A stretch of DNA of 47,969 bases from Treponema sp. (GTDB lineage Bacteria > Spirochaetota > Spirochaetia > Treponematales > Breznakiellaceae). The stretch is from assembly GCA_031258505.1 (NCBI GenBank), contig JAIRMT010000013.1:1-47969 (forward strand). Direction: 5' to 3'. Positions 1-44,029 of the stretch are shown piece after piece. Below the pieces are notes generated by a model. It was not told the DNA's origin. It ran no database searches and saw only the letters and a program-made list of their open reading frames with translations. The position numbers and the translations under genes are program-made. Position 1 is the first letter of the stretch. Every line of letters starts with the position of its first letter.

Positions 1-119
1 GATCATCGAATTACGCGAATGAACGCAAATCTTCTTTAGAGAAATGAAATATTCGCGTATATTAGCGTCCATTCGATGATAAATTCTTACCGGTTTTTCT
101 TCCTGCGTAACATGAGTTA
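1..119. repeat. Left copy of an inverted repeat of at least 119 bp (partner 10525..10643). It may extend beyond the window edge.
   Basis: The reverse complement of 10525-10643 aligns base for base with 1-119, with about 8 mismatches by eye. It is internally self-complementary: ATCATCGAAT 2-11 pairs with ATTCGATGAT 71-80, and ACGCGAAT 13-20 pairs with ATTCGCGT 51-58. Confidence 0.85.
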
Positions 120-251
120 TATGTTCGCTGCCAGTTCGGGCCTGACTTCGCCGGTCTCCAGCGACAGCAAATACTTGCCCCACGCCCGCCCAATCGCGCA
201 GAGCTTGTACGCTAAGCGGGTTCGGAGCGCGGGAATCTGTGTGCGCGGCTA
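117..251 (-). pseudogene. Remnant of the 3' end of the NifH-like gene (duplicate of 3872..4008)
   Basis: 116-251 matches 3871-4008 in direct orientation, with 3 substitutions and a 2-nt deletion (ccccac--gcccg vs ccccacttgcccg). The deletion breaks the frame. Only about 44 terminal codons are present. Confidence 0.85.
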
Positions 252-3860: not shown

Positions 3861-3871
3861 AATGCTTGTTG

Positions 3872-4750
3872 TTATATGTTCGTTGCTAGTTCGGGCCTGA
3901 CTTCGCCGGTCTCTAGCGACAGCAAATACTTGCCCCACTTGCCCGCCCAATCGCGCAGAGCTTGTACGCTAAGCGGGTTCGGAGCGCGGGAATCTGTGTG
4001 CGCGGCTATCTCCCGCGCCAGCGATAAATACACCTGCGCCTGAGCTGAATCAGGCGCAGCCTCTATGGTGGTCTTGCCTTGCAGTTCACACTGCGTAACC
4101 GTAACCGAGCGGGGGATATATTCCACTACGCGAGTCTGTGTCTGAGCCACAAAGTCATCGATAATTTCTTTCGCATAGGGCTGGTTAATCGAATTGGCTA
4201 TTACGCCGCCCAGTAACGCGCCGCCAGAGTTGGAGTATTTCTGGATGCCGCGAAAAAGGTTGTTCGCCGCGTAAACCGCCATGAAGTCCGCCGAGGAGAC
4301 AGTGAAGACGTGTTGAGCTATGCCTTCACGAATCGGAACCGCGAAACCGCCACAGACCACGTCGCCAAGCACGTCGTAGATCACGAAGTCCAGGTCAAGT
4401 TCCTCGAAGATGCGCTGCTGCTTGAACAGTTCTACGGCAGTGATGATGCCGCGCCCAGCACAGCCAACTCCGGGCGAGGGACCGCCAGCTTCCACGCAGT
4501 ACACGCCGTTAAAGCCTCTGAAAATAACTTCATGGGCGTTGACCGCGCTCTTTTCCCGCAGGGTATCGAGTACGGTCGGGATGTAGGTTCCATCGCGGAG
4601 GGTGTTGGTCGAGTCGCTTTTGGGATCGCAACCAAACTGCATGACCTTGTAGCCGAGTTTTGAGAGAGCGGCGCTCAGGTTGGATGTAGTGGTGGATTTG
4701 CCAATGCCTCCTTTGCCATAGATTGCGATCTGTTTTGCTTTGCCCATCAT
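3872..4750 (-). CDS. NifH-family ATPase / [4Fe-4S] reductase component of a nitrogenase-like enzyme
   Basis: 292 aa. It has the P-loop GKGGIGKS, switch I CDPKSDST, and both cluster cysteines in NifH-type contexts ([17 protein letters not shown] and [14 protein letters not shown]). Confidence 0.93.
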
Positions 4751-4757
4751 AGCCCTC

Positions 4758-6317
4758 TCATCCGTTCACCACAGACTTGATAGTCGGGGGTTCGTTGTCG
4801 CTGGACAGAGGGACGGACTTGATGTAACTGAACGGGTCCTGCTCGTACCATGTTTTCTTAAAGGGCAGCGGCACGTTGAGCGAGAGTTGGCGGTTGAACT
4901 CAGCATTGCGGAACTTCTTTGCCAAACGCCGCGCAATCTCAAACACGCCTGAATAGCCGCAGTAGTTGTACTGAGGGCCGAAGAGTGGAAGCAAAGGGAG
5001 TCCATGGCGAGAAGCGATGTTGTTTCCGCCAACATGGGCAACGAGAATGTCCGGCTTGAGCTTTGAGATGATGTTCGACGATTCAAAGGGCTGGTTTGTG
5101 GCAACGCTGAATAACACATCATCAACATCGTGAAGCGCCTCAAAGATGGGTTCAACAAAGCGGTCGTAGTGGTGCGCCTTGAACCCAACGACTTCTATCT
5201 CCAAGTCTTGCAAGACCTCGGCAGTGGCGAGGATGCGTACCTCGCCGCCGAGTAGGTAGGCGCGTTTGCCTTTGAGGGTTTTACGGTATGGGTTCAGCGC
5301 TTCCTCAAGGTACTGATGCTCGGCTTTGATGAGGCGTTCTGTCTCATCCTCAATGCCGAAGTGGGCGGCGATGCGGCGCAGCCACCTGTCCGTGTTCTTC
5401 CGACCAATCGGGATGGTGTCAACCACAAAGGGAATGTTGTACATGGTCTTCAGGTGTTCCACGAAATAGTCATCGTGTGTGCCGCAGAGACTTACGTTGA
5501 GGCTGGTTTCCAGCGCGTACTGAAAATCCTCTGGTTTTGCGTAACAGGGGATAAACGTAACCTCAAGCCCCAGGGCTTCAAGGATGCGGCGGAACTCGGT
5601 TTCGTCAAAACGGCTCATGGAACCGACATTCAGCACGTTCAGCTTTCGGCTCCGGCGGTACTGTTCTCGCTGGCGCTGTTCCTCCTGTTCCCAGATGGGC
5701 TGCTTACGGTCTGGATAGCGAATGTACTTCTTGAGTATGCCGTGATACACCGCGTCATAGGCAGTTGCCATGAGCTTTGTCTTAAAGCCCTCGCAGTGTA
5801 TGGGAACGAGGATTGCCGCAGTTTCCTTCTGTATATCCTGAAGGATGTTGTCAATGTCGTCCCCGATGAGCGCCGGGACACAGCTATTGGTAACAATGAT
5901 GGACTCAGGCCGGAATTCCTTGTCCGCGTACAGGATTGCGTCGCGCAGCTTTTTTTCACCGCCGCCGATGACGTCTGGCTCATCAAGGTTGGTACTGAGC
6001 CAGATAAGCCCTGTTGCATTGGGGTCTCGTACCTGTTTCATGGCTTTGTTCTGCCCATAAGCGCCGATGGAACACATACCGCAACCCACAGGACCGTGCA
6101 TGATTACTACAGAGTTTCGTATGGAGTTGAGCATACCGAGGCTCAGGGTAAATTGACACCCCTGGGCTTGGGTGAAGGCGCGGGATGAGAGGTTTGTACA
6201 GCCATGCGCCTTTGCGCGGTCGCAAGTCCGTACCTGCGAACAGGTTCCGCCAAAAGCAATGGCTGCATGGAGCCGGTCTTCCCGTGATGGGGCTGATTTC
6301 GCATCTAAAAAGTTCAT
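4758..6317 (-). CDS. NifD/NifE-like subunit of a nitrogenase-like (component 1 type) oxidoreductase
   Basis: 519 aa. It carries NifD-type motifs QGCQF (Cys54), HGPVGCG (Cys79), [13 protein letters not shown] (Cys146), PIHCEGF (Cys175) and [25 protein letters not shown] (Cys278, aligned by eye to the NifD Cys275 region). AAGGAG SD. Confidence 0.88.
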
Positions 6318-6329
6318 ATTTTCTACTCC

Positions 6330-7670
6330 TTATCTTGTTGCTACCAGGTAGGTAATGACGTCTTCCGCAAAGGAAAGTCCTCCGCTATAGCCGGCATAGG
6401 CGCGGTTCATCACGCAGCGTCCGGTAAGAGGGAAACTAACGGGTATGAGGGGATAACCGAATTCATCGGATAGGTCCCGCTCAAACGAACTGCCAATAAT
6501 GACCGTTGGATTAAAGGGGTCGTAGTACCGGTCATTCTGGTTCCGGGGCCAGACTTCTCTCAGGTATTTTTTTACCGAAGATGCGTCAGTATCAAAGCGC
6601 ACTGACGGCGTGAGTCCTGAGTTCAATTCCTGAAACTGGGCGCTTACACTCTGTTGACGGCTCTTGTCGAGAGTGTCTGTTACCATAACCAGTTCTGGTA
6701 TCCAGCCCAGCTCGTCAGAGACAAAACGGGTTATTGCCGGCGCATAGTTGGAATCACCGATTACCACAGCATAGCGCTGGAGATCAGCGTCATTGTATAT
6801 GTCCGCGATACGTGAGAGGTAGTCGTAGTAGATTGACTTCTCCTCGTCAATGACGCGCTTGACCGCTGCCGAGTCAAGCGCAAGCGCCTTGCCGACGCTG
6901 TTCAGGAAAACCTCGCTTGCCAGCGCCCCGATGGGGAAGGGCGTTACAATGTAGGGGATGCCGTGTACTTCCTCAAAGTATTGGGCGCTGTCAATGCCCG
7001 GTCCATTGGATACAACGATGTTCAGCCCCGCGTTACCCGCGTTTTTGAGCGCGTCCAGGGTTTCACCCTCGCCAAAGAAGGTGTTTACCGTGAGTCCAAG
7101 CCGCTCCAGAAGCCGCTTGAGTTCCCGCAGATTGCCCTTCCAGAATACGTCCTGCGCTGGAACTATACCAAGCACGTTGACGGTGAGCGGGTCTTTCGAG
7201 GCTTGCTTGGCAATGTACTTGGCGATGAGTCCTTTCAGCACAAGCTCATAACCAGTGAAGGCGTTACCTTTGAAGCTAGGCGTGGGAATGGCGATGACTG
7301 GTTTTTCCGCGTCAGCGAATTCAGCTGCAACTGATACGGTGTCGTCGCCAATCATATCAACCATACAGCCGGTTACGACGACATAGAGGTCGCCGTCCAC
7401 GATTTCAAGGGTTGACTGTATCTGCTCCCGCAGGCGGCCTTCACCGCCAAACACCACATCCCGTTCCACCACGTTGGAACTGGGCAGGGCAGCGCCGCCG
7501 CAGTAGCCGCCGCCGAGATAGCCTGCGCCGGCATTGAGCGCCGCGTTTATGTTGCCGCCGCAACCTGCCGAGCCGTGTATAATGCTTATTGTCCTGGGCA
7601 GGGCATGCAATGTACCAATCGCGCCGCCAAGCGCACAGGTGTAGCGCGGTCGGTCGATAAATTTACTCAT
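6330..7670 (-). CDS. NifK/NifN-like subunit of a nitrogenase-like oxidoreductase
   Basis: Three P-cluster-type cysteine motifs: RYTCALGGA, HGSAGCGG and VTGCMVDMIGDD. I prefer the start at 7670 (MSKFIDRP) because GGAGG lies 8 nt upstream. The track start at 7685 lies inside that SD. Confidence 0.85.
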   Translation of the reverse strand: MSKFIDRPRYTCALGGAIGTLHALPRTISIIHGSAGCGGNINAALNAGAGYLGGGYCGGAALPSSNVVERDVVFGGEGRLREQIQSTLEIVDGDLYVVVTGCMVDMIGDDTVSVAAEFADAEKPVIAIPTPSFKGNAFTGYELVLKGLIAKYIAKQASKDPLTVNVLGIVPAQDVFWKGNLRELKRLLERLGLTVNTFFGEGETLDALKNAGNAGLNIVVSNGPGIDSAQYFEEVHGIPYIVTPFPIGALASEVFLNSVGKALALDSAAVKRVIDEEKSIYYDYLSRIADIYNDADLQRYAVVIGDSNYAPAITRFVSDELGWIPELVMVTDTLDKSRQQSVSAQFQELNSGLTPSVRFDTDASSVKKYLREVWPRNQNDRYYDPFNPTVIIGSSFERDLSDEFGYPLIPVSFPLTGRCVMNRAYAGYSGGLSFAEDVITYLVATR

Positions 7671-7691
7671 TTCATATACCTCCATATTGTT

Positions 7692-8639
7692 TTAACCATG
7701 AGAAAACGTTTCCTCAATAGGCGTTCTGTTTTCGCCATAGATGAGGGACGCAAAATCCCCCTTACCCGGAATGCCGATGGCGTCGGCGCGGCAGTGCTGA
7801 CAGTGCCTGAACACTGGCAAGTAGGCTTCAGCCGCCTCACGAGCGCGGCTAAGCGCGTCGCAGTCCGGCGCGCTGTATTCCGCGAACTCGTGTTGGGGTA
7901 TGAGGGGAATAATGTTAATGATAGACGCGCCCCAATCATGCGCGGCGCGGGCAATGTCGGCGATGTGTGTGTCGTTAACGCCCGGAATCAGCACGATGTT
8001 AATCTTGATGGTGAAGCCAATGTCCGCCGCCTCTTGTATACCCCGCTCTTGCGCGCTGATTAAGAAGACCGCGCCTTCAACGCCAGTATAGACCTTGCCG
8101 TCAAGCATTACATGGGAACAAATCCGGTGAAGAATGACTGGATCAACAGCGTTCACGGTTACGGTCAGAGTTTTGACTCCGACCTGTGCAAGGTCTTGGG
8201 CGTAGCGCTCCAGCAACAAGCCGTTGGTGGATAGACATTTGATGAGCGCCGGGTATGCCTGATGAATGAGCGCGAAGGTTTCAATGGCGTGAGTCGTTGC
8301 CAGCGTATCTCCCGGACCAGCGATACCTGCCACTGTGATGTCAGGACAGCGTTCCAGCGCCTCTTTCACCAGGTCAACCGCGTCTTTTGGCGCAAGCAGT
8401 CTCGCGCTTACCCCAGGGCGATTCTCGAACTTGTTAAACGAGCGCTTGCAGAACCGGCACTGTATGTTACACACCGGACTGACAGGCAAATGCACCCGTC
8501 CATGATTCAAGGTTGCCCCGCTAGAAAAGCAGGGGTGATTCAGCGAAGGGTGAAGGCTGGAGCGCGCATTAGCGGTTCCAGTGGATTGAAGAATCTTGAC
8601 ATTCTCCGTAATCGCTGAAGCAGCGAGAGCTGCACTCAT
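7692..8639 (-). CDS. nifB: NifB-like radical-SAM cofactor maturase (stand-alone SAM domain, no C-terminal NifX domain)
   Basis: 315 aa. It has HPCF...[20 protein letters not shown] (a CX3CX2C motif), [32 protein letters not shown] and a C-terminal [12 protein letters not shown]. These are the characteristic NifB motifs. Its ATG overlaps the cysK stop (ATGA). Confidence 0.88.
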
Positions 8640-9583
8640 AGCGGTCGTTCCAGTGAATCGAAGAGCGCTGTTGAGAGATAGCGTTCGCCCGTATCTGGCA
8701 GGAGCGCGACAATGGTCTTGCCTTGAAACTCCGGTCGTTTGGAGATTTGGGTTGCTGCGTATACAGCCGCGCCTGAAGAAATGCCCACGAGCAAGCCTTC
8801 GGTTATGGCAAGACGCTGGGACGCGATATAGGCTTCCTCAGTACGCACCTTGTAAATCTCGTCGTATATCGAGGTGTTAAGCACATGGGGTACAAAACCC
8901 GCGCCTATGCCCTGAATCTTGTGCGGACCTGGCGCTGAACCAGACAGTACCGCTGAATCGTAGGGTTCCACGGCAATCACTTTTATTGCCGGATTCTGCG
9001 CTTTGAGGAACTCGCCCGCGCCAGTGATAGTGCCGCCAGTTCCAATGCCTGCGACAAAGGCAGCCACATCGCCGTCAGTGTCCCGCCATATTTCAGGACC
9101 AGTGGTTTTCCGGTGAATGTCTGGATTTGCCGCATTGTTAAACTGCTGGGGAATAAAGGAACCGTTAATCTGAGCGTGGAGTTCCTCAGCCTTCCTGATA
9201 GCGCCTTTCATGCCGTCCTTACCCGGTGTGAGTACCAGCTCTGCGTTCAGCGCGCTCAACAGTTTCCGCCGCTCTATACTCATGGTGTCGGGCATAACCA
9301 GAATGATGCGGTAACCCTTAGCTGCGGCGACAAAAGCCAGCCCCACGCCAGTATTCCCACTCGTTGGCTCAATCAGCACGCTGTCCTTGGTTATCAGCCC
9401 CTGCTGTTCCGCCGCCTCGATCATTGCCAGCGCGATACGGTCTTTAACGCTCCCCGCTGGATTGAAGTATTCCAGCTTTGCCACGAGCCTTCCCTTCAGC
9501 TCAAAGCCCTCAGCATAGCCGCTCAGTTCCAGCAGCGGCGTATTCCCGATAAGCTCCGTCAGTTTCTTTGCAATCTTTGCCAT
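8636..9583 (-). CDS. cysK: Cysteine synthase A / O-acetylserine sulfhydrylase (first gene of the nitrogenase-like operon)
   Basis: 315 aa. PLP-lysine motif [15 protein letters not shown] loop and [20 protein letters not shown]. Confidence 0.93.
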
Positions 9584-9651: not shown

Positions 9652-10460
9652 GGATTGAACGCCCAGTTCCTTTAGGAACTAACGCCTAGTTCCTTAGGGG
9701 AACTAACACCTAGTTCCTCTAGGAACTAACACCTCGTTCCTCTAGGAACTAACACCTAGTTCCTTATGGGAACTAACACCTAGTTCCTTAGGGGAACTAA
9801 CACCTAGTTCCTCTAGGAACTAACACCTAGTTCCTTTAAGGAACTAACGCCTAGTTCCTTAGGGGAACTAACACCTCGTTCCTTAGGGGAACTAACGCCC
9901 AGTTCCTTAGGGGAACTAACGCCCAGTTCCTTTAGGAACTAACGCCTAGTTCCTTTAGGAACTAACACCCTGATCCTAGAGGAACTAACGCCTCGTTCCT
10001 TAGGGGAACTAACCGCTAGTTCCTTAGGGGAACTAACACCCTGATCCTCTAGGAACTGATACCTAGTTCCTTTAGGAACTAACACCTAGTTCCTCTAGGA
10101 ACTAACACCTAGTTCCTTATGGGAACTAACGCCTAGTTCCTTATGGGAACTAACGCCTAGTTCCTTATAGGAACTAACGCCTAGTTCCTTATGGGAACTA
10201 ACACCCTGATCCTCTAGGAACTAACACCCTGATCCTCTAGGAACTAACGCCCAGTTCCTTTAGGAACTAACCGCTAGTTCCTCTAGGAACTAACCACTAG
10301 TTCCTCTAGGAACTAACGCCTAGTTCCTTATGGGAACTAACACCTAGTTCCTCTAGGAACTAACACCTCGTTCCTTATGGGAACTAACACCTCGTTCCTT
10401 ATGGGAACTAACACCCTGATCCTCTAGGAACTAACACCCTGATCCTCTAGGAACTAACAC
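9652..10460. repeat. Tandem array of about 34 palindromic units with a 23-24 bp period
   Basis: The unit is GGAACTAAC[A/G]CC[T/C][A/C]GTTCC plus a 4-5 nt linker (TTTA, TCTA, TTAGG, TTATG). I counted 33 full units plus degenerate ends. TAG/TAA stops occur in every unit, and the ORF track has no ORF of 60 aa or more across it. Confidence 0.95.
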
Positions 10461-10524: not shown

Positions 10525-10643
10525 TAACTCATGTTACGCAGGAAGAAAAAATGGTAAGAATTGGTCATCGAATGGACGCTAATATACGCGAATAGGTCAT
10601 TTCTCTAAAGAAGATTCGCGTTCATTCGCGTAATTCGATGATC
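10525..10643. repeat. Right copy of the inverted repeat of at least 119 bp (partner 1..119)
   Basis: See feature 1..119. It lies between the palindromic array and the ispG stop. Confidence 0.85.
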
Positions 10644-10688: not shown

Positions 10689-11801
10689 CTATCTTTTCGC
10701 GCCAGCTTCCCCCAGCATTTCCCGCCACGCCTCGTCCGCGTCCCTTGCGTCTATCGTGCGCAGCAGTTCCCCGCGCCGGAACAACATTACCTTGTCGCCA
10801 ACGCCCGTGATGCCGAGGTCTGCCGAGCGCGCCTCGCCGGGGCCGTTCACTACGCACCCCATTACCGCGATGGTCAGCGGCTTGTCCAGCGCGTATAGCG
10901 TGGTTTTCCAGCGCTCGGTGAAGGCGTGCGTGTCAAAGCTGTTTCTGCCGCAGCGGGGACACGAGATGATTGTTACGCCATTGCGCGGAACACGGTCAGA
11001 GGCTAGGGTGGCGAGGATTTCTCTGGCGGCAATGACTTCGTTCTCCATCGTGTCAGAGAGCGAGACACGGATTGTATCGCCGATGCCGGTGGAAAGCAGC
11101 GAGTGCAGGGCAATGGTGTTCCGTACCACACCAGCGATGAGGGGACCGGCTTCAGTAACGCCGATGTGGAGTGGCGCGTCAGTGCGGTCGGCAAGGAGGC
11201 GGTTTGCGGCGATGGTGTCAGAGACAGAAGAGGCTTTCATTGAGACGAGTACCTTGTCAAAGGCGAAGTCGCGGAAGATGGCAAGTTCACGTTCTGCGGC
11301 CTGTACCAGCGCTTCCACACGGCTGAGACGCTTTTCGTCAACCTGAATGTGGAGGTCTTGCGGCAGACTTCCAGCGTTCAAGCCAATACGGATGGGGACG
11401 CCTGCGGCGGCGGCTTTCTCCAGCACTTGGGCGGTTTTGTCTTTGCCACCGATGTTACCGGGGTTCAGGCGGATTTTGGCTATTGGGAAGTCAAGGCAGC
11501 GAAGCGCGATTTTGTAGTTGAAGTGTATGTCTGCTACCAGCGGCATGGAGACCATGCCAGCCAGGGTTCCTATGACTTCGGCGGCGTCCATGTCTGGCAC
11601 GGCAAAACGCAATAAGCCGCATCCCATGTCTTGTAATGCGGCTATGCGTTTGACGATGGCTTCGCCAGATGCGCCTTCGATGTCCGTAAAATGAAGGCGG
11701 TCTTTCCACATCGTTTGTATAACGATGGGTAGACCGCCGCCGATAGAAACGGCAGAGACGTTTGCTCTGCCGCCTATTGTTATGGTTCGGGAAAGCCGCA
11801 C
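10689..11801 (-). CDS. ispG: 4-hydroxy-3-methylbut-2-en-1-yl diphosphate synthase (MEP pathway)
   Basis: 370 aa. It has the typical IspG N-terminus (IGG..PI.IQTM), the NPGNIG motif and a C-terminal [4Fe-4S] CPRCGR...GCVVNGPGE. It starts 6 nt after the V-ATPase K gene. Confidence 0.92.
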   Translation of the reverse strand: MRLSRTITIGGRANVSAVSIGGGLPIVIQTMWKDRLHFTDIEGASGEAIVKRIAALQDMGCGLLRFAVPDMDAAEVIGTLAGMVSMPLVADIHFNYKIALRCLDFPIAKIRLNPGNIGGKDKTAQVLEKAAAAGVPIRIGLNAGSLPQDLHIQVDEKRLSRVEALVQAAERELAIFRDFAFDKVLVSMKASSVSDTIAANRLLADRTDAPLHIGVTEAGPLIAGVVRNTIALHSLLSTGIGDTIRVSLSDTMENEVIAAREILATLASDRVPRNGVTIISCPRCGRNSFDTHAFTERWKTTLYALDKPLTIAVMGCVVNGPGEARSADLGITGVGDKVMLFRRGELLRTIDARDADEAWREMLGEAGAKR

Positions 11802-11807
11802 GGTTTG

Positions 11808-12239
11808 CTAGAGGCTGACCATTGAGAGTACCATCGCAAAGAGCGCGACGGTTTCGCAGATGCCGACAACCGAGATGTACTGTGCAAAGCCCTTACCGGT
11901 TTCGCCCTGTGCATCGGAGGCTGCAGCGCCTGCCTGACCCTGCGCGATTGCCGAGAATGCCATTGCCAGACCTGAGCCGATACCAAAGCCTAAGTAGAGC
12001 CAGCCTTGGTCAGGGTTTGCCAGCGCTGCAGCTTTTATCTGACCCATGAGAATGAACCCGTAAAACGTCTGGGTTAAGGGTGCGCCAGCAAAGGTAACCA
12101 GTGTCATGGGTGCGGGTTTGTTGGCAATGTAACACCGCTTCCACGCGCCTATTGCCGATTGCCCGGCAATGCCGATACCGATTGCTGAACCTATTGCCGC
12201 AATACCCATTACAAGACCTGCGCCTAATAATCCTAACAT
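11808..12239 (-). CDS. ntpK: V-type ATPase proteolipid subunit K
   Basis: 143 aa, glycine/alanine-rich, four predicted TM helices. It is the last gene of the V-ATPase operon. Confidence 0.88.
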   Translation of the reverse strand: MLGLLGAGLVMGIAAIGSAIGIGIAGQSAIGAWKRCYIANKPAPMTLVTFAGAPLTQTFYGFILMGQIKAAALANPDQGWLYLGFGIGSGLAMAFSAIAQGQAGAAASDAQGETGKGFAQYISVVGICETVALFAMVLSMVSL

Positions 12240-12309
12240 GTTAAACTCCTTCTATAATCTGCAAGTTTAAAGCTTGGTAAAGACTTGGCTTTACCAGAAA
12301 CTCATTGCA

Positions 12310-14148
12310 TTAAATTTTAACCGTTTTACCAAACGGTTTATACATAAAGCCTGACCAGGTAAGCCCTAAATGCCCGGAGAATTCTAGGGTATTCAGCCGC
12401 ACACCGTGAACAAGCACCGACAACACATTGAGTACGACATTCAAGCCATGCCCAAAGACTAAAAGAATGATGCCCATAAAGATTAAAAAGTTTCCTAAGA
12501 GGGGGCCTGCCATAGTATTCACGGTCGATGAAATCGACGCGCCAGCAAGCCCTACAGCCCAGAGACGGATGTAGGACATGATGTCCGAGAACACGTTAGT
12601 AATGCCCAGTACCACTGAGATGATGTTCTTAAAACTGTACAAGATGGACTGCCCCAGATTGCCCTCATAACCAGCGAACACAAACGTAAGGAAGAAGCCG
12701 CCGCCTAAGAGGTACAGCGACGCTGGCAAAAGGGGTATCTGCCGGTAGCTGTTACTGACCACGAGGAAAAGCACAAGGTTGAACATTCCGATGAGCATGG
12801 CAAGGGAGCCTAGTTCAGCGAACAGTTTTAAGGACTTGATGTTGCGAAAGAAACCTTTGATGTGCGCAATGCCGAGTTGCAGGAGCGCAAGTGAGAAACA
12901 GAAGATTTGCAGGTTTTGATCAACGATAGCCTTTTGCGCCACGCCTTTTGCCGCTTCCGCACTGGAAAGCGCTGGTAACGAGATACTTCGCAGGATTTCT
13001 GGCAGCTTCGCCGCATCAATGCCGAACCATGTGCAGGTAATAATACCCCAGGCGATATTGGATAGGCTGAGTAGTCCCAGCATTTTAAGCGCGGCGGGAA
13101 CGCCTTGAGCCGCAGTCTTGGCAATACCGATGATGGCGATAATACCAAGTATCGCGCCATAGCCTGCATCCCCGAAAATCATGCCGAAAAATATGCAGAA
13201 GAACAGCAGGAACCAGCCAGATATGTCTACTTCACGGTAGCCCGGCACTACTTCTAGGAAGTCGGTGAGCGGGTAGATGAGGCTGGCGAGTTTGTTGTTC
13301 TTGAGCAGGGTCGGTACTGCATCTTCTTCGGACGGGTCGGCTATTGCCAATGCCCAGCCGTTTTCGGCGGCGGCGCGTTTCAGCACGCCAACGTCGTCCT
13401 TTGGCGCAAAACCAGTGAGCCAGGAAATGCCTGTGCTAAGGGAATTTGCGCCCGGGCTAACGCTGTCCATGCTTGCCTTCGCGGTTTCAAACTCAATGTT
13501 TCGCGCCAGGGTCTTTAGCTCGTCCTCAATACTGTTTTTATGAGCGGCAAGCATTGCAAAGCGTTTCTCAAGGTCTGCCAGTTTTGTCTGAATGTTCTTT
13601 ATGAGCGTGCGCATTTCAGACAGAGATTTTTCGGGCAGGGCAAAGGGCGTCTCACCGGTGATTTCGTGATCCAGCGCCACGCCGTATACCTTAACCTTGT
13701 CCCGAAACAGGGTAATAAAACGCTGTTCTTTGTCCAGAGACTCATACGCCTTGTAGGACAATTCATAGGGGATAAGAGTGAGTCCCTGCTTGACCAGCTC
13801 TTTCAAGGCAGCGGGGTTGAAATCCCCCCACTTCTCAACGCGGCTCTCTTCTTTGCCAAGCGACAAAACCTGTTCCTGAAGCGTCTTCTTTTCGTTGTCC
13901 ATACCCAAGACCTCGGTAACTAGGTCTGAGATAGACGCTTTTGAATCAGTTTCTGCGGCTTTATAAGACCGCAGAAGTCCGAGCGCTGTTTCCGCCTTTG
14001 CCTTGCGGTCGAGCTGCTTTGAGAGACCGTCGCTGGCAACAGGACGCGACTCAATGTGCAACAAGCCCAAGTCACGGAGTTTGGCAAGCGATGCGTCGCG
14101 GGTTTTATCCATAACCACGATGGAGATTTTCTTCATTGGTACTATCAT
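12310..14148 (-). CDS. ntpI: V-type ATPase subunit I (membrane stator/a-subunit)
   Basis: 612 aa with a soluble N-terminal half and a polytopic C-terminal half. Operon position is between D and K. Confidence 0.88.
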   Translation of the reverse strand: MIVPMKKISIVVMDKTRDASLAKLRDLGLLHIESRPVASDGLSKQLDRKAKAETALGLLRSYKAAETDSKASISDLVTEVLGMDNEKKTLQEQVLSLGKEESRVEKWGDFNPAALKELVKQGLTLIPYELSYKAYESLDKEQRFITLFRDKVKVYGVALDHEITGETPFALPEKSLSEMRTLIKNIQTKLADLEKRFAMLAAHKNSIEDELKTLARNIEFETAKASMDSVSPGANSLSTGISWLTGFAPKDDVGVLKRAAAENGWALAIADPSEEDAVPTLLKNNKLASLIYPLTDFLEVVPGYREVDISGWFLLFFCIFFGMIFGDAGYGAILGIIAIIGIAKTAAQGVPAALKMLGLLSLSNIAWGIITCTWFGIDAAKLPEILRSISLPALSSAEAAKGVAQKAIVDQNLQIFCFSLALLQLGIAHIKGFFRNIKSLKLFAELGSLAMLIGMFNLVLFLVVSNSYRQIPLLPASLYLLGGGFFLTFVFAGYEGNLGQSILYSFKNIISVVLGITNVFSDIMSYIRLWAVGLAGASISSTVNTMAGPLLGNFLIFMGIILLVFGHGLNVVLNVLSVLVHGVRLNTLEFSGHLGLTWSGFMYKPFGKTVKI

Positions 14149-14747
14149 TGGGCAGCCCTCTGCATACCACGTTTGGCGATCTTGCCGCGAACCACTGCCG
14201 CAGTCTGCTGATCACCGAGGTATACCTGAATTTTCTTGATATTCCCTGTAGTTTCGGGAATCTTGATCTTCTCAAACAGGTTGACTCGCTGAGTCGTTAC
14301 CCGCAGTTCATGCTCCAGCCGCTTGCGCTGTTCCTCGAGGGTCTGCGCCTCAAGGTCAAGCAAGAGTACCTGCTTCATGCGCTCCACAGCTGCGTCAAGC
14401 CAGAGCGGGGTACGGACGAGGTCGTAAGGCGTGATTTCAAAGTCAGCGCCATGAAAGACAGGGATTGTTACGCCCGCAATGTTTCCCTCAGAAGTCCGCA
14501 GACTGGTGATTCGGAGTATGTCTGGGGTGAAAAAGCCCTTCTCGCCGTAGACCGCGATCCATGCCTTGAAGGTTTCATCAATCCGCTTTTTTTCGTCGAG
14601 CAGTTCTTTGATACGCGACTCTGTGGTTCTGATTTCTGCCTGAAGCTGTTGTTTCTTGAGCATGAGCGTAGGCAGATAACGCTGAAACATTTTCAGCGAA
14701 TCTTTCTGCTTTTTAAGCTCATTCTTCGTCAGCTTGATCTTTGCCAT
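14145..14747 (-). CDS. ntpD: V-type ATPase subunit D
   Basis: 200 aa, with a coiled-coil N-terminus (KLTKNELKKQKDSLKMFQRYLPTL). It overlaps the start of subunit I. Confidence 0.88.
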   Translation of the reverse strand: MAKIKLTKNELKKQKDSLKMFQRYLPTLMLKKQQLQAEIRTTESRIKELLDEKKRIDETFKAWIAVYGEKGFFTPDILRITSLRTSEGNIAGVTIPVFHGADFEITPYDLVRTPLWLDAAVERMKQVLLLDLEAQTLEEQRKRLEHELRVTTQRVNLFEKIKIPETTGNIKKIQVYLGDQQTAAVVRGKIAKRGMQRAAQ

Positions 14748-14754
14748 GGCGACC

Positions 14755-16053: not shown

Positions 16054-16063
16054 CTATGCCACC

Positions 16064-17824: not shown

Positions 17825-17827
17825 TTG

Positions 17828-18406: not shown

Positions 18407-18409
18407 CGC

Positions 18410-20897: not shown

Positions 20898-21248
20898 ATG
20901 GCTTGGCGAGTTGCATTCACGAGCGCCGACGATGTTTATGTGAACCAGCATTTTGGACACGCCCGTTACTTCGTCATCAGGGATATAGAGGCTGATGGTA
21001 CGAGTAGCTTTTTGGAACGACGGGAGATTACACCAGTCTGCGGAAGCGGCGATCACGGCGCTGGGGTGCTAGACGATGTGATCGAGAGCCTGCACGATTG
21101 TATCGCGGTACTTACCGCAAAGATTGGTCCCGCACCCCGCAAACGGTTGGAATTGGCGGGTATCACGGTTTTCGAGGAACCAGCTATCATTGAGGAGGCG
21201 GCGAGGAAACTGGCGGCTTACTATAGCCGGACAAAGCGAGAGGAGTAG
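20898..21248 (+). CDS. NifX/NifB-C-terminal-domain family protein (Fe-S/FeMo-cofactor-binding family)
   Basis: 116 aa. It shows the family signature VNQHFGHARYFVIRDIE at the N-terminus and the small alpha/beta size typical of NifX/NafY/NifB-C domains. Confidence 0.75.
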   Translation: MAWRVAFTSADDVYVNQHFGHARYFVIRDIEADGTSSFLERREITPVCGSGDHGAGVLDDVIESLHDCIAVLTAKIGPAPRKRLELAGITVFEEPAIIEEAARKLAAYYSRTKREE

Positions 21249-28257: not shown

Positions 28258-28318
28258 TTAAGATTTTTTATAAAAAATCTTAAAATCTATTGACACTCCA
28301 TTTTTTATAATATATATT
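28258..28318 (+). promoter_or_regulatory. Perfect 26-bp palindrome plus sigma70-like promoter (copy B)
   Basis: TTAAGATTTTTTATAAAAAATCTTAA at 28258-28283. TTGACA at 28290-28295, a 17-nt spacer, and TATATT at 28313-28318. Confidence 0.55.
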
Positions 28319-28357
28319 CTTAGTAAATCAGTGGGTATTATAAGCGAAGGAGCTTTT

Positions 28358-32831: not shown

Positions 32832-32930
32832 TCTGTAGACTATGGAGCGTAGTCTGTAGACTATGGAGCGTAGTCTGTAGACTATGAGGCGTAGTCTGTA
32901 GACTATGAGGCGTAGTCTGTAGACTATGAC
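32747..32930. repeat. 21-bp tandem repeat, about 9 units in two subfamilies
   Basis: Four GTCTACAGACAAyGG... units (coding) are followed by five GTCTGTAGACTATGrrGCGTA units (non-coding). The junction holds the lipoprotein stop codon. Confidence 0.92.
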
Positions 32931-39404: not shown

Positions 39405-40373
39405 ATGCAACACGAAACCAATACAAAAGTAAAACATCTGGTTGACATACTGTCACGGAGTTACCGGGATCATGCGGAAATTATAAAAGTCGATGCGGAA
39501 AATCAGCTTAACCGGAGTGTCATCATTGATATTCTTGAGCGGCTGCGCAAACTTATTTTTCCCGGCTATTTTGGCAAGAAACATCTTTCCGCTGACTTGA
39601 TAGAATATTACGCTGGAGATTTGCTTGAAGAAGTTATCCATGATCTCACCCCGGAGCTGGCTAAAGCACTGTGTCATCTTGATGACACGGCAGTTTCCCC
39701 GGCGGAAAAGGCAAGCAGCGGTTTATTTTTTCAAGAACAGGCCAGTGATATTGCCTTTACGTTTTTGTCAAGATTGCCGGAAATCCGGGAATATCTTGTC
39801 TCCGATGTTTCCGCCGCCTTTGACGGCGACCCTGCGGCGTTCAGCAAAGATGAAATAATCTCGTCCTATCCGGGAATATACGCTATCATGGTCTACCGTC
39901 TGGCACATGCGCTATACGAACTTGATGTCCCGCTCATTCCCCGAATTATGACCGAACATGCGCATAGCGTTACTGGCATCGACATTCACCCCGGCGCGGT
40001 AATCGGACATCATTTCTTCATTGACCACGGAACCGGAATTGTCATTGGAGAGACAACGATCATCGGTAACCATGTAAAAATATACCAGGGCGTAACTCTG
40101 GGCGGGCTTTCCACCAGAGGCGGTCAGGCTCTTAAAGGAACTAAACGCCATCCCACCATTGAAGATCATGTAACGATCTATTCAGGCGCTTCCATATTCG
40201 GCGGCGCTACGATTATCGGTGAGGGAGTTGTAATCGGCAGCAGCGCCTTTATCACCAAGTCGGTACCGGAAAAAACTAGGGTTAGCGTGAAAAATCTGGA
40301 AATGCAGTACAAGGTAGACCAGAGCGCCCGCGCCGAGCTTGTCCAGGACGGCTTTTGGGATTGGGTGATATAG
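39405..40373 (+). CDS. cysE: Serine O-acetyltransferase (long form)
   Basis: Hexapeptide-repeat core GIDIHPGAVIGHHFFIDHGTGIVIGETTIIGNHVKIYQGVTLGG. GAGGAG SD. Confidence 0.88.
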   Translation: MQHETNTKVKHLVDILSRSYRDHAEIIKVDAENQLNRSVIIDILERLRKLIFPGYFGKKHLSADLIEYYAGDLLEEVIHDLTPELAKALCHLDDTAVSPAEKASSGLFFQEQASDIAFTFLSRLPEIREYLVSDVSAAFDGDPAAFSKDEIISSYPGIYAIMVYRLAHALYELDVPLIPRIMTEHAHSVTGIDIHPGAVIGHHFFIDHGTGIVIGETTIIGNHVKIYQGVTLGGLSTRGGQALKGTKRHPTIEDHVTIYSGASIFGGATIIGEGVVIGSSAFITKSVPEKTRVSVKNLEMQYKVDQSARAELVQDGFWDWVI

Positions 40374-40376: not shown

Positions 40377-40834
40377 TCAAGCGATTCAAGGTTTTTTATA
40401 AAAAACCTTGAAACCTATTGACACTTGATGTTTTACAAGATACATTCTTAGTAAATCAGTAGGTATTATAAGCAAAGGAGCTTTTATGTCGGAACTAAGT
40501 ATAAGCACTGCGTCAAATGGCCTAAGCGTTGGCAAAGACTCGGCGCTGTCCATCCATTTTGACTGGCGCACTCTGATCCCACTCGTCTCGGTCGCCTTTA
40601 CCCAGGTACTGCATACCGCGCTGCCAGTAGCGTCAACGTATCGCACCAAGGTTCTACCGTGGTTCACCTGGTTCAACGTCGTTGCTATCGGGGTACTGGC
40701 AATACTCGCGGTGGTGAGTCTCTTTAACAGCCGGTATCGGGAACGGTTCACGTATAAATCATGGTTTCTGGGGGTAGCGTTTCTTCTGCTCAACTTGTAT
40801 AACCTCATCACCGTCAAGTTCGACCTGATTCCCA
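40377..40834 (+). repeat. Copy C of the dispersed direct repeat (the functional copy, continuous with the full-length permease)
   Basis: It aligns with 21311-21745 (copy A) and with copy B from about 28250 to 28545. Confidence 0.85.
40387..40446 (+). promoter_or_regulatory. Perfect 24-bp palindrome plus sigma70-like promoter (copy C)
   Basis: CAAGGTTTTTTATAAAAAACCTTG at 40387-40410. TTGACA at 40418-40423, a 17-nt spacer, and TACATT at 40441-40446. AAGGAG at 40475-40480. Confidence 0.55.
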
Positions 40835-41502
40835 GCCTCTATTTCCCATCGCCGGAACGGATCGTGTATGTATTTCTCACAGACTGGTTCTTTATACTGC
40901 GCTGCCTAGTCTACTCGCTCCGTTTGTTGCTGGGCGGCTTCTTCCTCGGCGCGCTGCTTGGGGTGCTAACCGGTACGCTCATCGGCTGGAGCCAGCGCTG
41001 GAACTACTGGATCATGCCCTGTATCCGAATCGTGGGACCGATTCCATCAACCGCCTGGATACCCATCGCGCTGGTGGTCTTCACAAAAGCGACCGATGCA
41101 GCGCTGTTCCTCATCGCCCTGGGAGTCTGGTTCCCCACAACGGTACTCACCAGTTCAGGCATCCTCAATGTGCGGAAAAGTTACTTCGAGGTTTCAAGCA
41201 CCTTGGGAGCGAGCAATCTGCGGAATGTGCTTTCCATCGCCCTACCCGGCGCCGCGCCAAACATCTTCGCGGGCCTGTTTAACGGCACATCGTCGTCATT
41301 CCTAACCCTTATGGCCGCTGAAATGATCGGCTGTAAGTTCGGCATTGGCTGGTACATCAACTGGCAGAGGGAAACCATGGCGTATTCACAGGTGTACGCA
41401 GCGCTCATCGTGATTGCCATAACCTTTTCACTCCTCATTAACCTCCAGTTCAAGATTCGCAATCGCGTCCTGAGTTGGCAGAAAGGCACAATTCGGTGGT
41501 AG
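40486..41502 (+). CDS. ABC transporter permease (NitT/TauT family) with an extra N-terminal membrane extension of about 110 aa
   Basis: 338 aa. The C-terminal ~230 aa resemble permease 29639..30508. The N-terminal extension is the part duplicated in copies A and B. Confidence 0.88.
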   Translation: MSELSISTASNGLSVGKDSALSIHFDWRTLIPLVSVAFTQVLHTALPVASTYRTKVLPWFTWFNVVAIGVLAILAVVSLFNSRYRERFTYKSWFLGVAFLLLNLYNLITVKFDLIPSLYFPSPERIVYVFLTDWFFILRCLVYSLRLLLGGFFLGALLGVLTGTLIGWSQRWNYWIMPCIRIVGPIPSTAWIPIALVVFTKATDAALFLIALGVWFPTTVLTSSGILNVRKSYFEVSSTLGASNLRNVLSIALPGAAPNIFAGLFNGTSSSFLTLMAAEMIGCKFGIGWYINWQRETMAYSQVYAALIVIAITFSLLINLQFKIRNRVLSWQKGTIRW

Positions 41503-41510
41503 GTGAAAAT

Positions 41511-42305
41511 ATGCAAACAGCAGTACATGGCGGAACCATACGGATCAACGGTGTAACTAAAACCTTTCCTCAAGAAGGCGCGGCTGATATTACCGTGCTG
41601 GATAACATCAGCCTTGTTTTCAAAAGCGGCGAGTTTATTTCTCTCATCGGCCCATCCGGATGCGGGAAGTCAACCCTGCTGCGGCTCATCGCTGGACTTA
41701 CCCAAAGCGATAGCGGCTCACTTTTTTTGGATGACGCCGAGATACAAGCGCCGGGACATGAGCGAGGGCTGGTGTTTCAGGACCCAACCCTGTTCCCGTG
41801 GAAAACCATCTGGGAGAACATCGCCTTCGGGCTGCGGGCGCGTGGGGTCTATCGTGAAGAAAAACAGAACATTCCCGGGTTTTTCAAGCTCGTGGGGCTT
41901 GAGGGCTTTGAGAAGTCCTATCCTCACCACCTTTCCGGCGGTATGGCGCAGAGGGCGTCGCTGGCCAGGACCCTCATCAATAACCCAAAAGCGCTCCTGC
42001 TTGACGAGCCTCTGGGCGCTCTTGACGCCTTTACCCGCATGAATATGCAGGACGAGATTCTCAAGATATGGGAAGAACGTCGAATGACTATGGTCATGGT
42101 TACGCATGATGTTGATGAGGCGATTTACATGGCTGACCGCATCGTGGTCATGTCAGCGCGCCCGGCTAAGATTGAAAAGATGATTACAGTGGAGATTGGC
42201 CGTCCGCGACAGCGCGACGACCCGGACTTCCTCGACCTGCGAGCGAAGATACTACAAATCCTGCACTTCGCGGGCGCAAAGCAGGAACCGGAGTACAACT
42301 TGTGA
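41511..42305 (+). CDS. ABC transporter ATP-binding protein (SsuB/TauB-like)
   Basis: Start at 41511 (MQTAVHGG). Walker [10 protein letters not shown], signature LSGGMAQR and Walker B LLLDEPLGALD are present. Confidence 0.9.
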   Translation: MQTAVHGGTIRINGVTKTFPQEGAADITVLDNISLVFKSGEFISLIGPSGCGKSTLLRLIAGLTQSDSGSLFLDDAEIQAPGHERGLVFQDPTLFPWKTIWENIAFGLRARGVYREEKQNIPGFFKLVGLEGFEKSYPHHLSGGMAQRASLARTLINNPKALLLDEPLGALDAFTRMNMQDEILKIWEERRMTMVMVTHDVDEAIYMADRIVVMSARPAKIEKMITVEIGRPRQRDDPDFLDLRAKILQILHFAGAKQEPEYNL

Positions 42306-42354
42306 AAAAACCGTCGTTGACGGAGAACATCTTTTTAAGGAGAGGATATAAACT

Positions 42355-43380
42355 ATGAAAAAAGCTATCCTTTTGCTTTCATTGGTTTGCGTGGCGGTAC
42401 TTAGCGTCCACGCAAGAGGTCAGAATCAGGGAACTTCCGCTGCTGCAGCGGAAGACCCGAACTATGTGGTCAAGATCGGACGGTCAGTCTCCGTCGGTCT
42501 TTGTACTTCACCTTTCGTCATCGCCGAGCATTTCGGTTACTACGAGGAAGAGGGACTCAAGTGGGATTCTGTCGCTATTGAGACAGGTCAGGCCAACCTC
42601 CTGCTCACCACCGGCGCGGTTGATGTTACCAACAACCTTTTGGCCACGCTCATTCAGCCCATTGCCAATGGTCTTGACGTGAAGATTCCCCTGGGCATAC
42701 ACACGGGCTGCCAGAAGGTACTGGTACGCGTTGATTCTGATATACAAACGCCCGCAGACCTTCGCGGCAAGCGAATCGGCACAACCGGCATGGCATCCAG
42801 CGGCACGGTCATCACCCAGCGCTATCTCGCGGAACTAGGCATTGGCGTTACCGCCGATAACCTTGAGGTTGAGTGGCTGATCTATCAGCAGGCAGACCTC
42901 CCGTTGGCGCTTGAGCGGGGACAGGTTGACGCCATCGCGCTTGGAGACCCGACCGCTTACATCGTTGAGCAGGAAGGAAAGGCTAGGGTAATCATCAATC
43001 AGGCTACAGACGACTACCTCAAGGACGAATTCTGCTGTGTGGTAGTTGCTTCAGCCAACTTTGTGAAGGATCATCCCGAAGCTGCGGCAAAGTTCACCCG
43101 CGCTATTCAGAAAGCCGCAGCCTTTGTGCAGGAGAACCCTGATGAGACCGCCCGTATTCTTGATGAGCGAAAGTATGTGGCCGGCGATCCAGAGGTAAAC
43201 GCCGCCATACTCAAGACCTACAACTTTAGGGCTTCGGTGAGCGAGGCGGAAGTGGCGATTTCCCGTAATACGCGCGACCTCCAGAGAATCAATCTGGTGG
43301 ACAGCGACGTTGACCCCGACGCCCTTACGCGGAACGTCTTCATTGCCCTGCCCGGTGTGCCGGATTCACTGTATAAGTGA
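42355..43380 (+). CDS. ABC transporter substrate-binding protein (NMT1/SsuA-like)
   Basis: 341 aa with a signal peptide (MKKAILLLSLVCVAVLSVHA) and GGAGAGG SD. Confidence 0.8.
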   Translation: MKKAILLLSLVCVAVLSVHARGQNQGTSAAAAEDPNYVVKIGRSVSVGLCTSPFVIAEHFGYYEEEGLKWDSVAIETGQANLLLTTGAVDVTNNLLATLIQPIANGLDVKIPLGIHTGCQKVLVRVDSDIQTPADLRGKRIGTTGMASSGTVITQRYLAELGIGVTADNLEVEWLIYQQADLPLALERGQVDAIALGDPTAYIVEQEGKARVIINQATDDYLKDEFCCVVVASANFVKDHPEAAAKFTRAIQKAAAFVQENPDETARILDERKYVAGDPEVNAAILKTYNFRASVSEAEVAISRNTRDLQRINLVDSDVDPDALTRNVFIALPGVPDSLYK

Positions 43381-43439: not shown

Positions 43440-43443
43440 CGTA

Positions 43444-43766
43444 GGAATGAGGCGTTAGTTCCCCTAAGGAACTAGGCGTTAGTTCCTAGAGGAACTAGGC
43501 GTTAGTTCCTCTAGGAACAGGGTGTTAGTTCCTAGAGGAACTAGGCGTTAGTTCCTCTAAGGAACGAGCGGTTAGTTCCCCTAAGGAACGAGGCGTTAGT
43601 TCCTAGAGGAACTAGGCGTTAGTTCCTATAAGGAACGAGGCGTTAGTTCCTAGAGGAACTAGGTGTTAGTTCCTAAAGGAACTAGGTGTTAGTTCCTAGA
43701 GGAACTAGGTGTTAGTTCCCATAAGGAACGAGGCGTTAGTTCCTAGAGGAACTAGGTGTTAGTTCC
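43444..43766. repeat. Second palindromic tandem array (14 units), inverted relative to 9652..10460
   Basis: The units GGAAC[T/G]AGG[C/T]GTTAGTTCC are the reverse complement of the GGAACTAAC[A/G]CCTAGTTCC unit in array 1. Linker types are the same. Confidence 0.93.
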
Positions 43767-44029
43767 TAGGGAAGGCTTAGAGCGTCTCTTATCAAAGAGA
43801 GTACCGCATCTCATACCTTTCACACTCTGTACCATTGACAATATCGCCAGAGCCGCCTGTTTTATCGTTTGCAGATTTTGCGCCTCATGCTTCCTCATCG
43901 TCGTATGCTGGTCGTCTTGAACGCATCTATAGCTGCATGGGAGTATGCCTGGGGAATTTCTATGCGTTTATCCTGGTGATTGCCTATGCAGTCTTGCGCC
44001 ACTTGGTGTTGAATTGATATATTCATGTT

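Follow-up and report, generated by a model that had tools for sequence, protein, structure and literature searches.

A nitrogenase-like operon with a dedicated cysteine synthase in a termite-gut treponeme, a candidate sulfur-acquisition reductase outside the Mar lineage

Nitrogenase-like enzymes that acquire sulfur at the expense of ATP are already known: methylthio-alkane reductase (Mar, 2020), Isr (2024) and Mar2 (2026). Mar, Mar2 and Isr are all induced by sulfur limitation (bioRxiv 10.64898/2026.08.20.746119; PMC13474568), and only Mar and Isr, among the sulfur-acquiring members of the family, have known reactions. The Rhodospirillum rubrum enzyme has been solved as the complex MarDK2H2 (PDB 9FMG; PMC12552129). 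Linkage to a cysteine synthase is known as well: Dos Santos et al. remarked on it in 2012 for nitrogenase-like genes with Cys275 in Clostridium beijerinckii and Geobacter sp. FRC-32 (PMC3464626), and a paper of 2026 did so for group IV nifK/nifD of the termite-gut spirochete Pillotina corrugata (Breznakiellaceae; PMC13067680). Both mentions are one-sentence annotations, and the sole proposal is 'sulfur metabolism'. Here we analyse a stretch of 47,969 nucleotides from Treponema sp. (assembly GCA_031258505.1, contig JAIRMT010000013.1; hereafter the window), in which five genes, cysK-B-K-D-H, form an operon. It probably encodes a two-component group IV nitrogenase-like reductase that would serve sulfur acquisition through C-S cleavage, the sulfur being captured as cysteine.

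An earlier sequence-only reading of the window had presented the locus as possibly a distinct, uncharacterised member of group IV. The lineage is indeed separate, but the novelty was overstated, given the linkages of 2012 and 2026. What is new is a lineage outside Mar and IV-A-like proteins, conserved substitutions in its cofactor pocket, a dedicated and co-evolving CysK, and a CysK-K-D core found across phyla. In Pillotina corrugata, moreover, B and H lie at other loci and leucine-rich-repeat genes are interspersed, whereas the window holds B, K, D, H and CysK in one operon.

Like MarBHDK of R. rubrum (group IV-C; 9FMG and 9D9U) and Mar1/Mar2 of Rhodopseudomonas palustris, the operon combines a stand-alone NifB with an Fe protein and a D/K pair. 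It shares with them six P-cluster cysteines, the Cys/His pair that binds [Fe8S9C], the lack of NifEN and of homocitrate ligands, and a sulfur-related neighbourhood with sulfonate-type transporters and NifX. It differs in belonging to a separate superclade, in the loss of Arg428, in the substitutions Trp195Met, Phe199Tyr and Gly198Ala, and in a dedicated CysK in place of MetY. On homology, R. rubrum MarBHDK is the closest characterised relative, but the operon enzyme is not a Mar orthologue.

The five open reading frames (ORFs) run co-directionally on the minus strand at 3872-9583 and are tightly packed (Table 1). cysK and B overlap by 4 nt (ATGA); gaps of 6, 12 and 7 nt follow between B and K, K and D, and D and H. 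K probably starts at its second ATG, at 7670, which gives a protein of 446 residues, the length in relatives, and a B-K gap of 21 nt. The ORF listing thus bears out the spacing given in the sequence-only reading (overlap of 4 nt or gaps of 21 nt at most), and Pfam and NCBIfam scans returned the same five identities: cysK, a stand-alone NifB and NifK-, NifD- and NifH-like genes.

The first product, CysK, has canonical SVKDR, TSGNTG and GIGTGGT motifs and is 60% identical to the product of the window's second cysK. B matches TIGR01290 only at profile positions 11-278 of 441, that is, over the S-adenosylmethionine (SAM) domain and without the NifX domain. It scores 272 bits (E 6e-80) against the archaeal NifB structures 7BI7 and 7JMB, and carries the cysteine motifs HPC (Cys37), CxxxCxxC (Cys57/61/64) and, at its C-terminus, CxxCRAD (Cys280/283). 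As a putative NifB-type cluster synthase, B would make the [Fe8S9C] (L-cluster) precursor.

The best PDB matches of H, K and D are all chains of 9FMG and 9D9U. H shares 77% identity with R. rubrum MarH (498 bits; the next NifH scores 275) and contains a GKGGIGKS P-loop and, as [4Fe-4S] ligands, Cys97 and Cys133. K reaches 36% identity to MarK (289 bits, against 86 for the next PDB match), and D 29% to MarD of 9FMG (210 bits, against 115). Mar was therefore rightly named as the closest precedent, MarHDK being the best solved or characterised match for all three proteins.

The metal sites are intact. The P-cluster ligands Cys32, Cys56 and Cys121 of MarK have their aligned counterparts in Cys17, Cys42 and Cys107 of K. 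In D, Cys54, Cys79 and Cys146 are equivalent to the P-cluster ligands Cys66, Cys91 and Cys158 of MarD, and Cys278 and His428 to its [Fe8S9C] ligands Cys270 and His429; all five are kept in 86 of 86 D proteins of the superclade described below. Since every metal ligand is retained in D and K, the enzyme is expected to carry, like Mar, a P-cluster as well as an L-type cluster made by way of NifB.

D and K fall far under every NCBIfam cut-off for NifD/K/E/N, Vnf, Anf, Bch and Cfb. D scores 168 bits with TIGR01862 (cut-off 486) and 155 with TIGR01282 (654), K 91 with TIGR01286 (427); the top NCBIfam match of D, NifE at 181 bits, is also under its cut-off. With the Mo, V and Fe nitrogenases of groups I-III the system shares the fold, two-component ATP-driven electron transfer, the P-cluster and dependence on NifB. 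It differs from them in the scores of D and K (69-168 bits against cut-offs of 427-874), in having neither His442 nor NifEN, and in the absence from the window system of homocitrate or heterometal machinery and of an extended K N-terminus. An AlphaFold model of D is of moderate confidence (mean predicted local distance difference test score 67, predicted template modelling (TM) score 0.71), with low confidence in the cluster-binding loops, and was used for a fold-level match alone, not for pocket geometry. With this model, Foldseek ranks 9fmg_A first (TM 0.60/0.66), the nitrogenase alpha chains following at about 0.53-0.58.

Table 1 Features of the operon, of the associated genes and of the repeats, in window coordinates.
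Feature	Coordinates	Strand	Details
cysK, CysK paralogue (O-acetylserine sulfhydrylase)	8636..9583	-	315 residues; first operon gene; TIGR01139 447 bits (cut-off 351)
B, stand-alone NifB/MarB-type radical-SAM protein	7692..8639	-	315 residues; TIGR01290 258 bits
K, NifK/MarK-like beta subunit	6330..7685	-	451 residues from first ATG; PF00148 229 bits
D, NifD/MarD-like catalytic alpha subunit (predicted)	4758..6317	-	519 residues; PF00148 248 bits
H, NifH/MarH-like ATP-dependent Fe protein	3872..4750	-	292 residues; TIGR01287 397.8 bits (cut-off 394.35)
Frameshifted copy of last 45 codons of H gene	116..251	-	tblastn 92-95% identity to H residues 247-292
Tandem array of 23-nt palindromic unit (AGTTCC-N4-5-GGAACT)	9658..10460		34 copies (34.2, period 23); between ispG and cysK
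Orphan NifX-like cofactor carrier	20898..21248	+	PF02579 74.8 bits
cysE, serine O-acetyltransferase	39405..40373	+	TIGR01172 164 bits (under cut-off 210.65); NF041874 EpsC 151 bits (cut-off 150)
SsuA/NMT1-type ABC importer (permease, ATPase, binding protein)	40486..43380	+	orthologue of importer 5' of cysK in related treponemes
Inverted array of the 23-nt unit	43443..43773		14 copies; directly after ABC binding-protein gene

We searched D against 1.84 billion cluster representatives at 50% identity. About two dozen of them outscore MarD, the best at 42% identity. In a neighbour-joining tree of 66 D-type sequences (484 columns, 100 bootstraps, simple distance correction), the clade of the window D and its close relatives has 100% support and lies inside a superclade supported at 94%. 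R. rubrum MarD joins other representatives, including a group IV-A-like proxy (94-96%), and the window D is sister to the Mar group in none of the 100 replicates; the distinctness from Mar suggested by the sequence-only reading withstood this phylogenetic check. The window D has Tyr at MarD position 199, lacks Arg428 and comes from a CysK-linked K-D pair, which, together with a D identity of at least 40%, are the marks of the superclade. This superclade may be the published group IV-D or IV-E.

The IV-A proxy (P0151/P0308) was chosen by its cysteine pattern alone; its cysteines match all seven published positions of Endomicrobium proavitum NfaD, at an offset of one residue. With MarD it shares 42.5% identity, with the window D 29%, which places the window D further from MarD than a IV-A-type protein is. 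The distance between the lineage and MarD equals that which separates MarD from nitrogenase-like proteins with other functions.

The cofactor pocket was compared between 86 superclade members and 9 sequences of the Mar/IV-A side. Arg428, which precedes His429 of MarD and is conserved in nearly all group IV proteins according to a 2026 Chem Rev review, is present in 9/9 of the Mar/IV-A side and in 0/86 of the superclade. Phe199 of MarD is a Tyr in all 86 members, and Gly198, on the helix above the cofactor, is an Ala in most of them. Trp195 is the sole pocket residue whose mutation inactivates Mar (PMC13474568): it is kept in all nine Mar/IV-A-side sequences and replaced by Met in each of the 18 close relatives of the window D. 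At the six positions conserved in Mar, Mar1 and Mar2 (H194, W195, S196, F199, F374 and H375; bioRxiv 10.64898/2026.08.20.746119), the window D has L, M, A, Y, H and H. The remodelled pocket and the CysK partner, read from sequence, point to a substrate and a product other than those of Mar, which turns a thioether into methanethiol.

A scan of one genome per GTDB species gave 80 related loci, with D identities of 41-84%. The gene-neighbourhood check confirmed the cysteine synthase as a conserved partner. CysK lies within 3 kb of K-D in all 14 loci whose D is at least 58% identical, and in 46 of 71 overall; for unrelated paralogous D-K pairs of the same loci the figure is 2/18. The linked CysKs form a clade of their own, without the window's second CysK, and diverge in step with D (r = 0.80). 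Both facts argue that CysK is a long-standing dedicated component, not a chance neighbour. The triad CysK-K-D is a conserved core across several phyla. The superclade occurs in spirochetes, many Clostridia, Negativicutes, Paenibacillus, Gorillibacterium, Geobacter and Geomonas, as well as in Deltaproteobacteria, Planctomycetes and Synergistetes.

Neighbouring ORFs of 79 loci were clustered without prior labels. A gene for the ATPase of an ATP-binding cassette (ABC) transporter and one for CysK (the latter counted within 8 kb) each accompany K-D in 56 of the 79 loci, followed by an ABC permease (47), an SsuA/NMT1 binding protein (37, and 18 more in a second cluster), NifB (36), NifH-like (35) and NifX-like proteins (33). 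Cys_Met_Meta_PP enzymes and, in clostridial loci, Rrf2/CymR-like regulators also recur. A URO-D/MtaA-type methyltransferase (20/79), a RACo activase (15/79) and a corrinoid protein (14/79) are restricted to distant sub-clades (41-53% D identity), where they correspond to the mlp clusters previously linked to 'MarHDK-like' genes and proposed to use methyl sulfides (PMC10418091).

With perm, atp and sbp for the importer genes, the order is perm-atp-sbp-CysK-B-K-D-H in Treponema metagenome-assembled genomes (MAGs), B-H-CysK-K-D-perm-atp-sbp-X-X in Sporobacter termitidis, CysK-B-K-D-perm-atp-sbp-X-H-Rrf2 and then a Cys_Met_Meta_PP gene in Oxobacter pfennigii, and Rrf2 / CysK-B-K-D-X-H in an Oscillospiraceae MAG. 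The B-K-D-H order, flagged as unusual by the sequence-only reading, is real, but K before D is not unique to it: this order is the rule in the clade (59 of 71 loci) and occurs in R. palustris marKD2 too (bioRxiv 10.64898/2026.08.20.746119). In seven orthologous loci of Clostridia, SAM riboswitches precede neighbouring Met genes and none precedes cysK-B-K-D.

Several loci of Clostridia and Negativicutes (L019, L038, L057, L065 and others) have two to four further D-K pairs, 26-31% identical to the window D, within 10 kb of the CysK-linked pair. Such groups of pairs suggest batteries of related enzymes, each of which would reduce a different substrate.

On the Mar side the sulfur partner is another enzyme. 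R. palustris Mar2 and NflDK3 adjoin metY (bioRxiv 10.64898/2026.08.20.746119), and the locus of the IV-A-like proxy (L094, the contig of P0308) reads D-K-X-B-MetY-like-sbp-perm-atp-H. The dichotomy of MetY and CysK fits two products: methanethiol going to methionine on the Mar side, and sulfide or another nucleophile going to cysteine here. As a side remark, the NfaD-like proxy thus sits in a sulfur-type cluster, which is consistent with the doubts of the 2026 review about N2 fixation as the primary role of group IV-A.

We propose the following pathway for the Treponema system. An organosulfur compound would enter through the SsuA-type importer or by diffusion. H, spending ATP, would pass electrons to K2D2, first to the P-cluster and then to the L-type cluster of D, where the C-S bond would be cleaved reductively. 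The dedicated CysK would then join the reduced sulfur, most plausibly sulfide or else a small thiol, to O-acetylserine, yielding cysteine. That the product is sulfide is a nearly even call. A precedent for sulfide release is R. palustris Mar2, which also acts on ethanedithiol and is needed for growth on it (bioRxiv 10.64898/2026.08.20.746119; PMC13474568). The system would be expressed under sulfur limitation, to judge from the Rrf2/CymR-like regulators in clostridial loci and from the published induction of Mar, Mar2, NflDK3 and Isr. That it serves to scavenge sulfur and not to fix nitrogen is almost certain. A role in sulfur metabolism also agrees with the window itself, which has a large Cys/Met island and no nitrogen-regulation genes.

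A bolder version of this proposal can be put forward tentatively. The CysK-K-D lineage might be a catalytically new L-cluster branch that releases sulfide, not methanethiol, by reductive desulfurisation of thiols or sulfonates or by direct multi-electron reduction of a sulfur oxyanion, with CysK perhaps bound to K2D2 so that the sulfide is channelled. If so, it would be a third reaction class for nitrogenase-type cofactors, and the 'group IV nifH' signal of termite guts and other anoxic habitats would reflect the scavenging of sulfur, not of nitrogen. In any case, full P- and L-cluster machinery next to a remodelled pocket makes a clean target for new nitrogenase-cofactor chemistry, and the lineage may give many anaerobes a way to turn organosulfur compounds into cysteine.

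Several points weigh against the proposed C-S cleavage. The function is deduced wholly from homology and gene linkage, and, as regards substrate, product and the very direction in which CysK works, from linkage. The trees are neighbour-joining, not maximum-likelihood, and their Mar anchors were rebuilt from printed PDB (HMMER) alignments (D 10-499, K 24-462, H 11-288). The importer does not identify the substrate, because SsuA-type transporters also flank genuine Mar loci with volatile substrates. Context alone can mislead, since NflDK3, with the same ligands and a sulfur context, is inactive on all tested compounds. Finally, the 75 nt 5' of cysK contain no sigma-70-like promoter, and the operon is parted from its importer and native promoter; the nearest such promoter lies beyond the repeat array, at 10609..10581.

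NflDK3 (RPA2363-64) resembles the operon enzyme in its P-cluster and L-cluster ligands, its sulfur context and its induction by sulfur limitation. At 52-56% identity to MarDK1, however, it belongs on the Mar side, and the genes linked to it encode an O-acetylhomoserine sulfhydrylase and a methionine transporter instead of CysK. Isr (IsrBHDK of Rhodobacter capsulatus, group IV-F) likewise uses B, H, D and K for anaerobic sulfur assimilation, with tauABC, cysE, cysK and sufS around. IsrDK lacks the equivalents of NifD Cys62/Cys154 and the Cys270/His429 pair of MarD and is predicted to hold only a [4Fe-4S] cluster, whereas the window D has all of these ligands.

Mar chemistry itself, carried out by a divergent methylthio-alkane reductase, we consider unlikely. 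The operon enzyme would then convert dimethyl sulfide (DMS), ethyl methyl sulfide or methylthioethanol to methanethiol and a hydrocarbon, and CysK would be a general gene of the sulfur regulon or would make S-methylcysteine from methanethiol. Mar is the best characterised match of H, D and K, up to the 77% identity of H, their metal ligands are identical, and sister clades are linked to the corrinoid methyltransferase clusters proposed for methyl sulfides (PMC10418091). This must be set against a D that at 29% is farther from MarD than the IV-A-like proxy (42.5%), against the exchange of Trp195 for Met (18/18) and of Phe199 for Tyr (86/86) with the loss of Arg428 (0/86 vs 9/9), and against the partner enzyme: Mar-side clusters pair with O-acetylhomoserine sulfhydrylase, the window lineage with a co-evolving CysK.

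Full ATP-driven reduction of a sulfonate or of a sulfur oxyanion (sulfite, thiosulfate) to sulfide, which would feed CysK, is improbable. CysK needs sulfide, and CysK-K-D is the most conserved core of the system. The importer belongs to the sulfonate/nitrate (SsuA/NMT1) family, but this family is not diagnostic; the sulfur island of the window holds no sulfite reductase, but one may be encoded outside the window. Isethionate reductase attacks a sulfonate and nitrogenase reduces nitrite with six electrons (PMC13474568); full reduction of such compounds to sulfide, however, is known from no nitrogenase-family enzyme, and Isr is without the L-cluster ligands that the window D has.

It is highly improbable that the operon encodes a functional Nfa-like group IV nitrogenase fixing N2, as reported for the termite-gut bacterium Endomicrobium proavitum. 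NfaBHDK (group IV-A, E. proavitum and Heliophilum fasciatum) shares with it the termite-gut habitat, a complete set of NifB, H, D and K, the P-cluster cysteines and the Cys/His cofactor ligands; both D proteins even have an extra cysteine three residues past the second P-cluster cysteine (Cys82 in the window D, Cys81 in NfaD), and H exceeds the NCBIfam equivalog cut-off for nifH. Yet the window D falls outside the clade of the NfaD-pattern representative (29% identity, 0/100 bootstraps) and has no His at the position of NifD His442. The window is without NifEN, NifV, PII, NifA or nitrogen regulation, while Nfa is reported to support N2 fixation, and the conserved neighbours across 79 genomes are sulfur genes. 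That K and D form a NifEN-like scaffold maturing a metal cluster for another enzyme, an idea raised for nitrogenase-like proteins in 2012 (PMC3464626) and echoed in the sub-cut-off NifE match of D (181 bits), is just as hard to credit, as the window has no second D/K-type client, the homologous MarDK is itself a catalyst with an L-type cluster (PMC12552129), and a co-evolving CysK and an importer would make no sense. The identities of nitrogenase, Nfa orthologue, Isr and NifEN-like scaffold were accordingly rejected, on cut-offs, clade, ligands and the missing client.

The probable C-S-cleaving system extends beyond the five genes. These are real, as the sequence-only reading had them, but the importer and the orphan NifX-like gene of the window have to be counted in. 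The importer is 79%, 82% and 73% identical to the perm-atp-sbp of a related treponeme (L002), a divergence equal to that of the operon genes. In L002, L008 and L009, perm-atp-sbp-cysK-B-K-D-H is colinear; in the window the importer stands 31 kb from the operon, on the opposite strand. Its binding protein scores 120 bits with TIGR01728 (SsuA_fam), under the cut-off, as is its SaoX match, and the PDB offers distant matches only, with ligands unknown or unrelated; the transported substrate is therefore unreadable from it.

The two arrays of the 23-nt unit are inverted relative to each other and 33 kb apart, and their arms are 89-96% complementary. Flipping the segment between them would restore perm-atp-sbp-cysK-B-K-D-H and make the operon the last, co-directional part of the sulfur island. 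Two explanations offer themselves: recombination between the arrays inverted 33 kb and so split the system, or the repeats were misassembled. The array next to cysK could serve the operon as a 5' leader. None of 87 related loci contains the unit; among metagenome contigs of JGI it had no exact match, and a relaxed pattern gave six two-unit matches only. The array looks lineage-specific, not like a conserved regulatory feature of the family.

Rearrangement has touched the other end of the operon too. The 3' end of the H gene occurs at 116-251 and 3871-4008 as direct repeats (D6/D7; 96-100% identity, with a 2-nt indel), which flank inserted alpha/beta-hydrolase and chemoreceptor genes. In addition, positions 1-119 are an inverted 94% copy of 10525-10643, just beyond the repeat array, so that inverted repeats, the left one cut by the window edge, bracket the 10.6-kb operon region. 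Loci of related spirochetes show rearrangements as well: L009 has H in the opposite orientation, L001 has no H after D, and L006 has lost B and H and gained a restriction system.

The NifX-like protein probably serves the nitrogenase-like system. It is 42% identical to a NifX-like protein encoded within the Sporobacter termitidis cluster, and NifX is required for growth of R. palustris on DMS and dimethylsulfoniopropionate (bioRxiv 10.64898/2026.08.20.746119; PMC13474568).

The sulfur context described by the sequence-only reading (an orphan NifX, SsuA-type importers, Cys/Met genes) is present, but the operon is not physically embedded in it. ispG and a V-type ATPase operon (10689-19051) separate cysK-B-K-D-H from a Cys/Met island at 23000-43380, which comprises two SsuA-type ABC systems, metQNI, an aminotransferase, the second cysK and a Cys_Met_Meta_PP enzyme. 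cysE sits immediately upstream of the importer; pathway logic and position suggest that it supplies O-acetylserine to CysK. As the sequence-only reading had it, no second nifEN-type pair is encoded: tblastn of the window with D, K, H and B gave, as its only extra match, the 136-nt copy of the marH 3' end. Family scans of nearly all window ORFs of at least 150 residues found no PII-, NifA-, NifV- or NifS-type gene either, the only cysteine desulfurase being a SufS-type encapsulin cargo. An Rfam scan of the whole window found no riboswitch, T-box or other known RNA.

As had been supposed, the host is a Treponema from the termite gut, of the Breznakiellaceae type. Subunit A of its V-type ATPase is 97% identical to that of a 'Treponema sp.' MAG and 82-84% to those of Breznakiella homolactica, Leadbettera azotonutricia and Hollandina, and the D proteins nearest to that of the window (75-99%) belong to Treponema and Spirochaetaceae MAGs that bear the isolate names of termite-gut bins.

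Public names of the D homologues are misleading: they read 'nitrogenase molybdenum-iron protein alpha chain', and MBE5958684.1 is even an 'oxalate:formate antiporter'. With such names, and with H above the nifH cut-off, anyone who surveys diazotrophy by nifH or COG1348, whether in termite guts or in other habitats, will count these sulfur genes as nitrogenases.

The sulfur island has further features of its own. A family 2A encapsulin shell (NF041162, 489 bits) and then its cysteine desulfurase cargo (NF041166, 772 bits, cut-off 800) lie in mid-island at 35775-38184. At 32952-35762, cysM is followed by a JAMM-desampylase/MoaD-like fusion and by a MoeZ/MoeB-type adenylyltransferase with a rhodanese domain, a set that resembles the CysO-thiocarboxylate route to cysteine in Mycobacterium. 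Just before cysM ends a tandem array (32747-32928) of about 9 copies of a 21-nt unit with a palindromic core (GTCTACAGAC), which overlaps the 3' end of an unannotatable ORF of 150 residues (32386-32838).

A cassette of about 220 nt occurs three times, at 21327-21545, 28264-28482 and 40392-40610 (85-89% identity). It consists of a near-consensus promoter (TTGACA-17-TATATT) with a ribosome-binding site, followed by some 42 codons from the start of the gene for the importer's SsuA-type permease. The three copies precede three different groups of sulfur-related genes, and two of them are truncated permease fragments. Near the right end of the window, at 47840-47921, the 7-nt unit CTCCCGG is repeated perfectly in tandem, in 11.7 copies.

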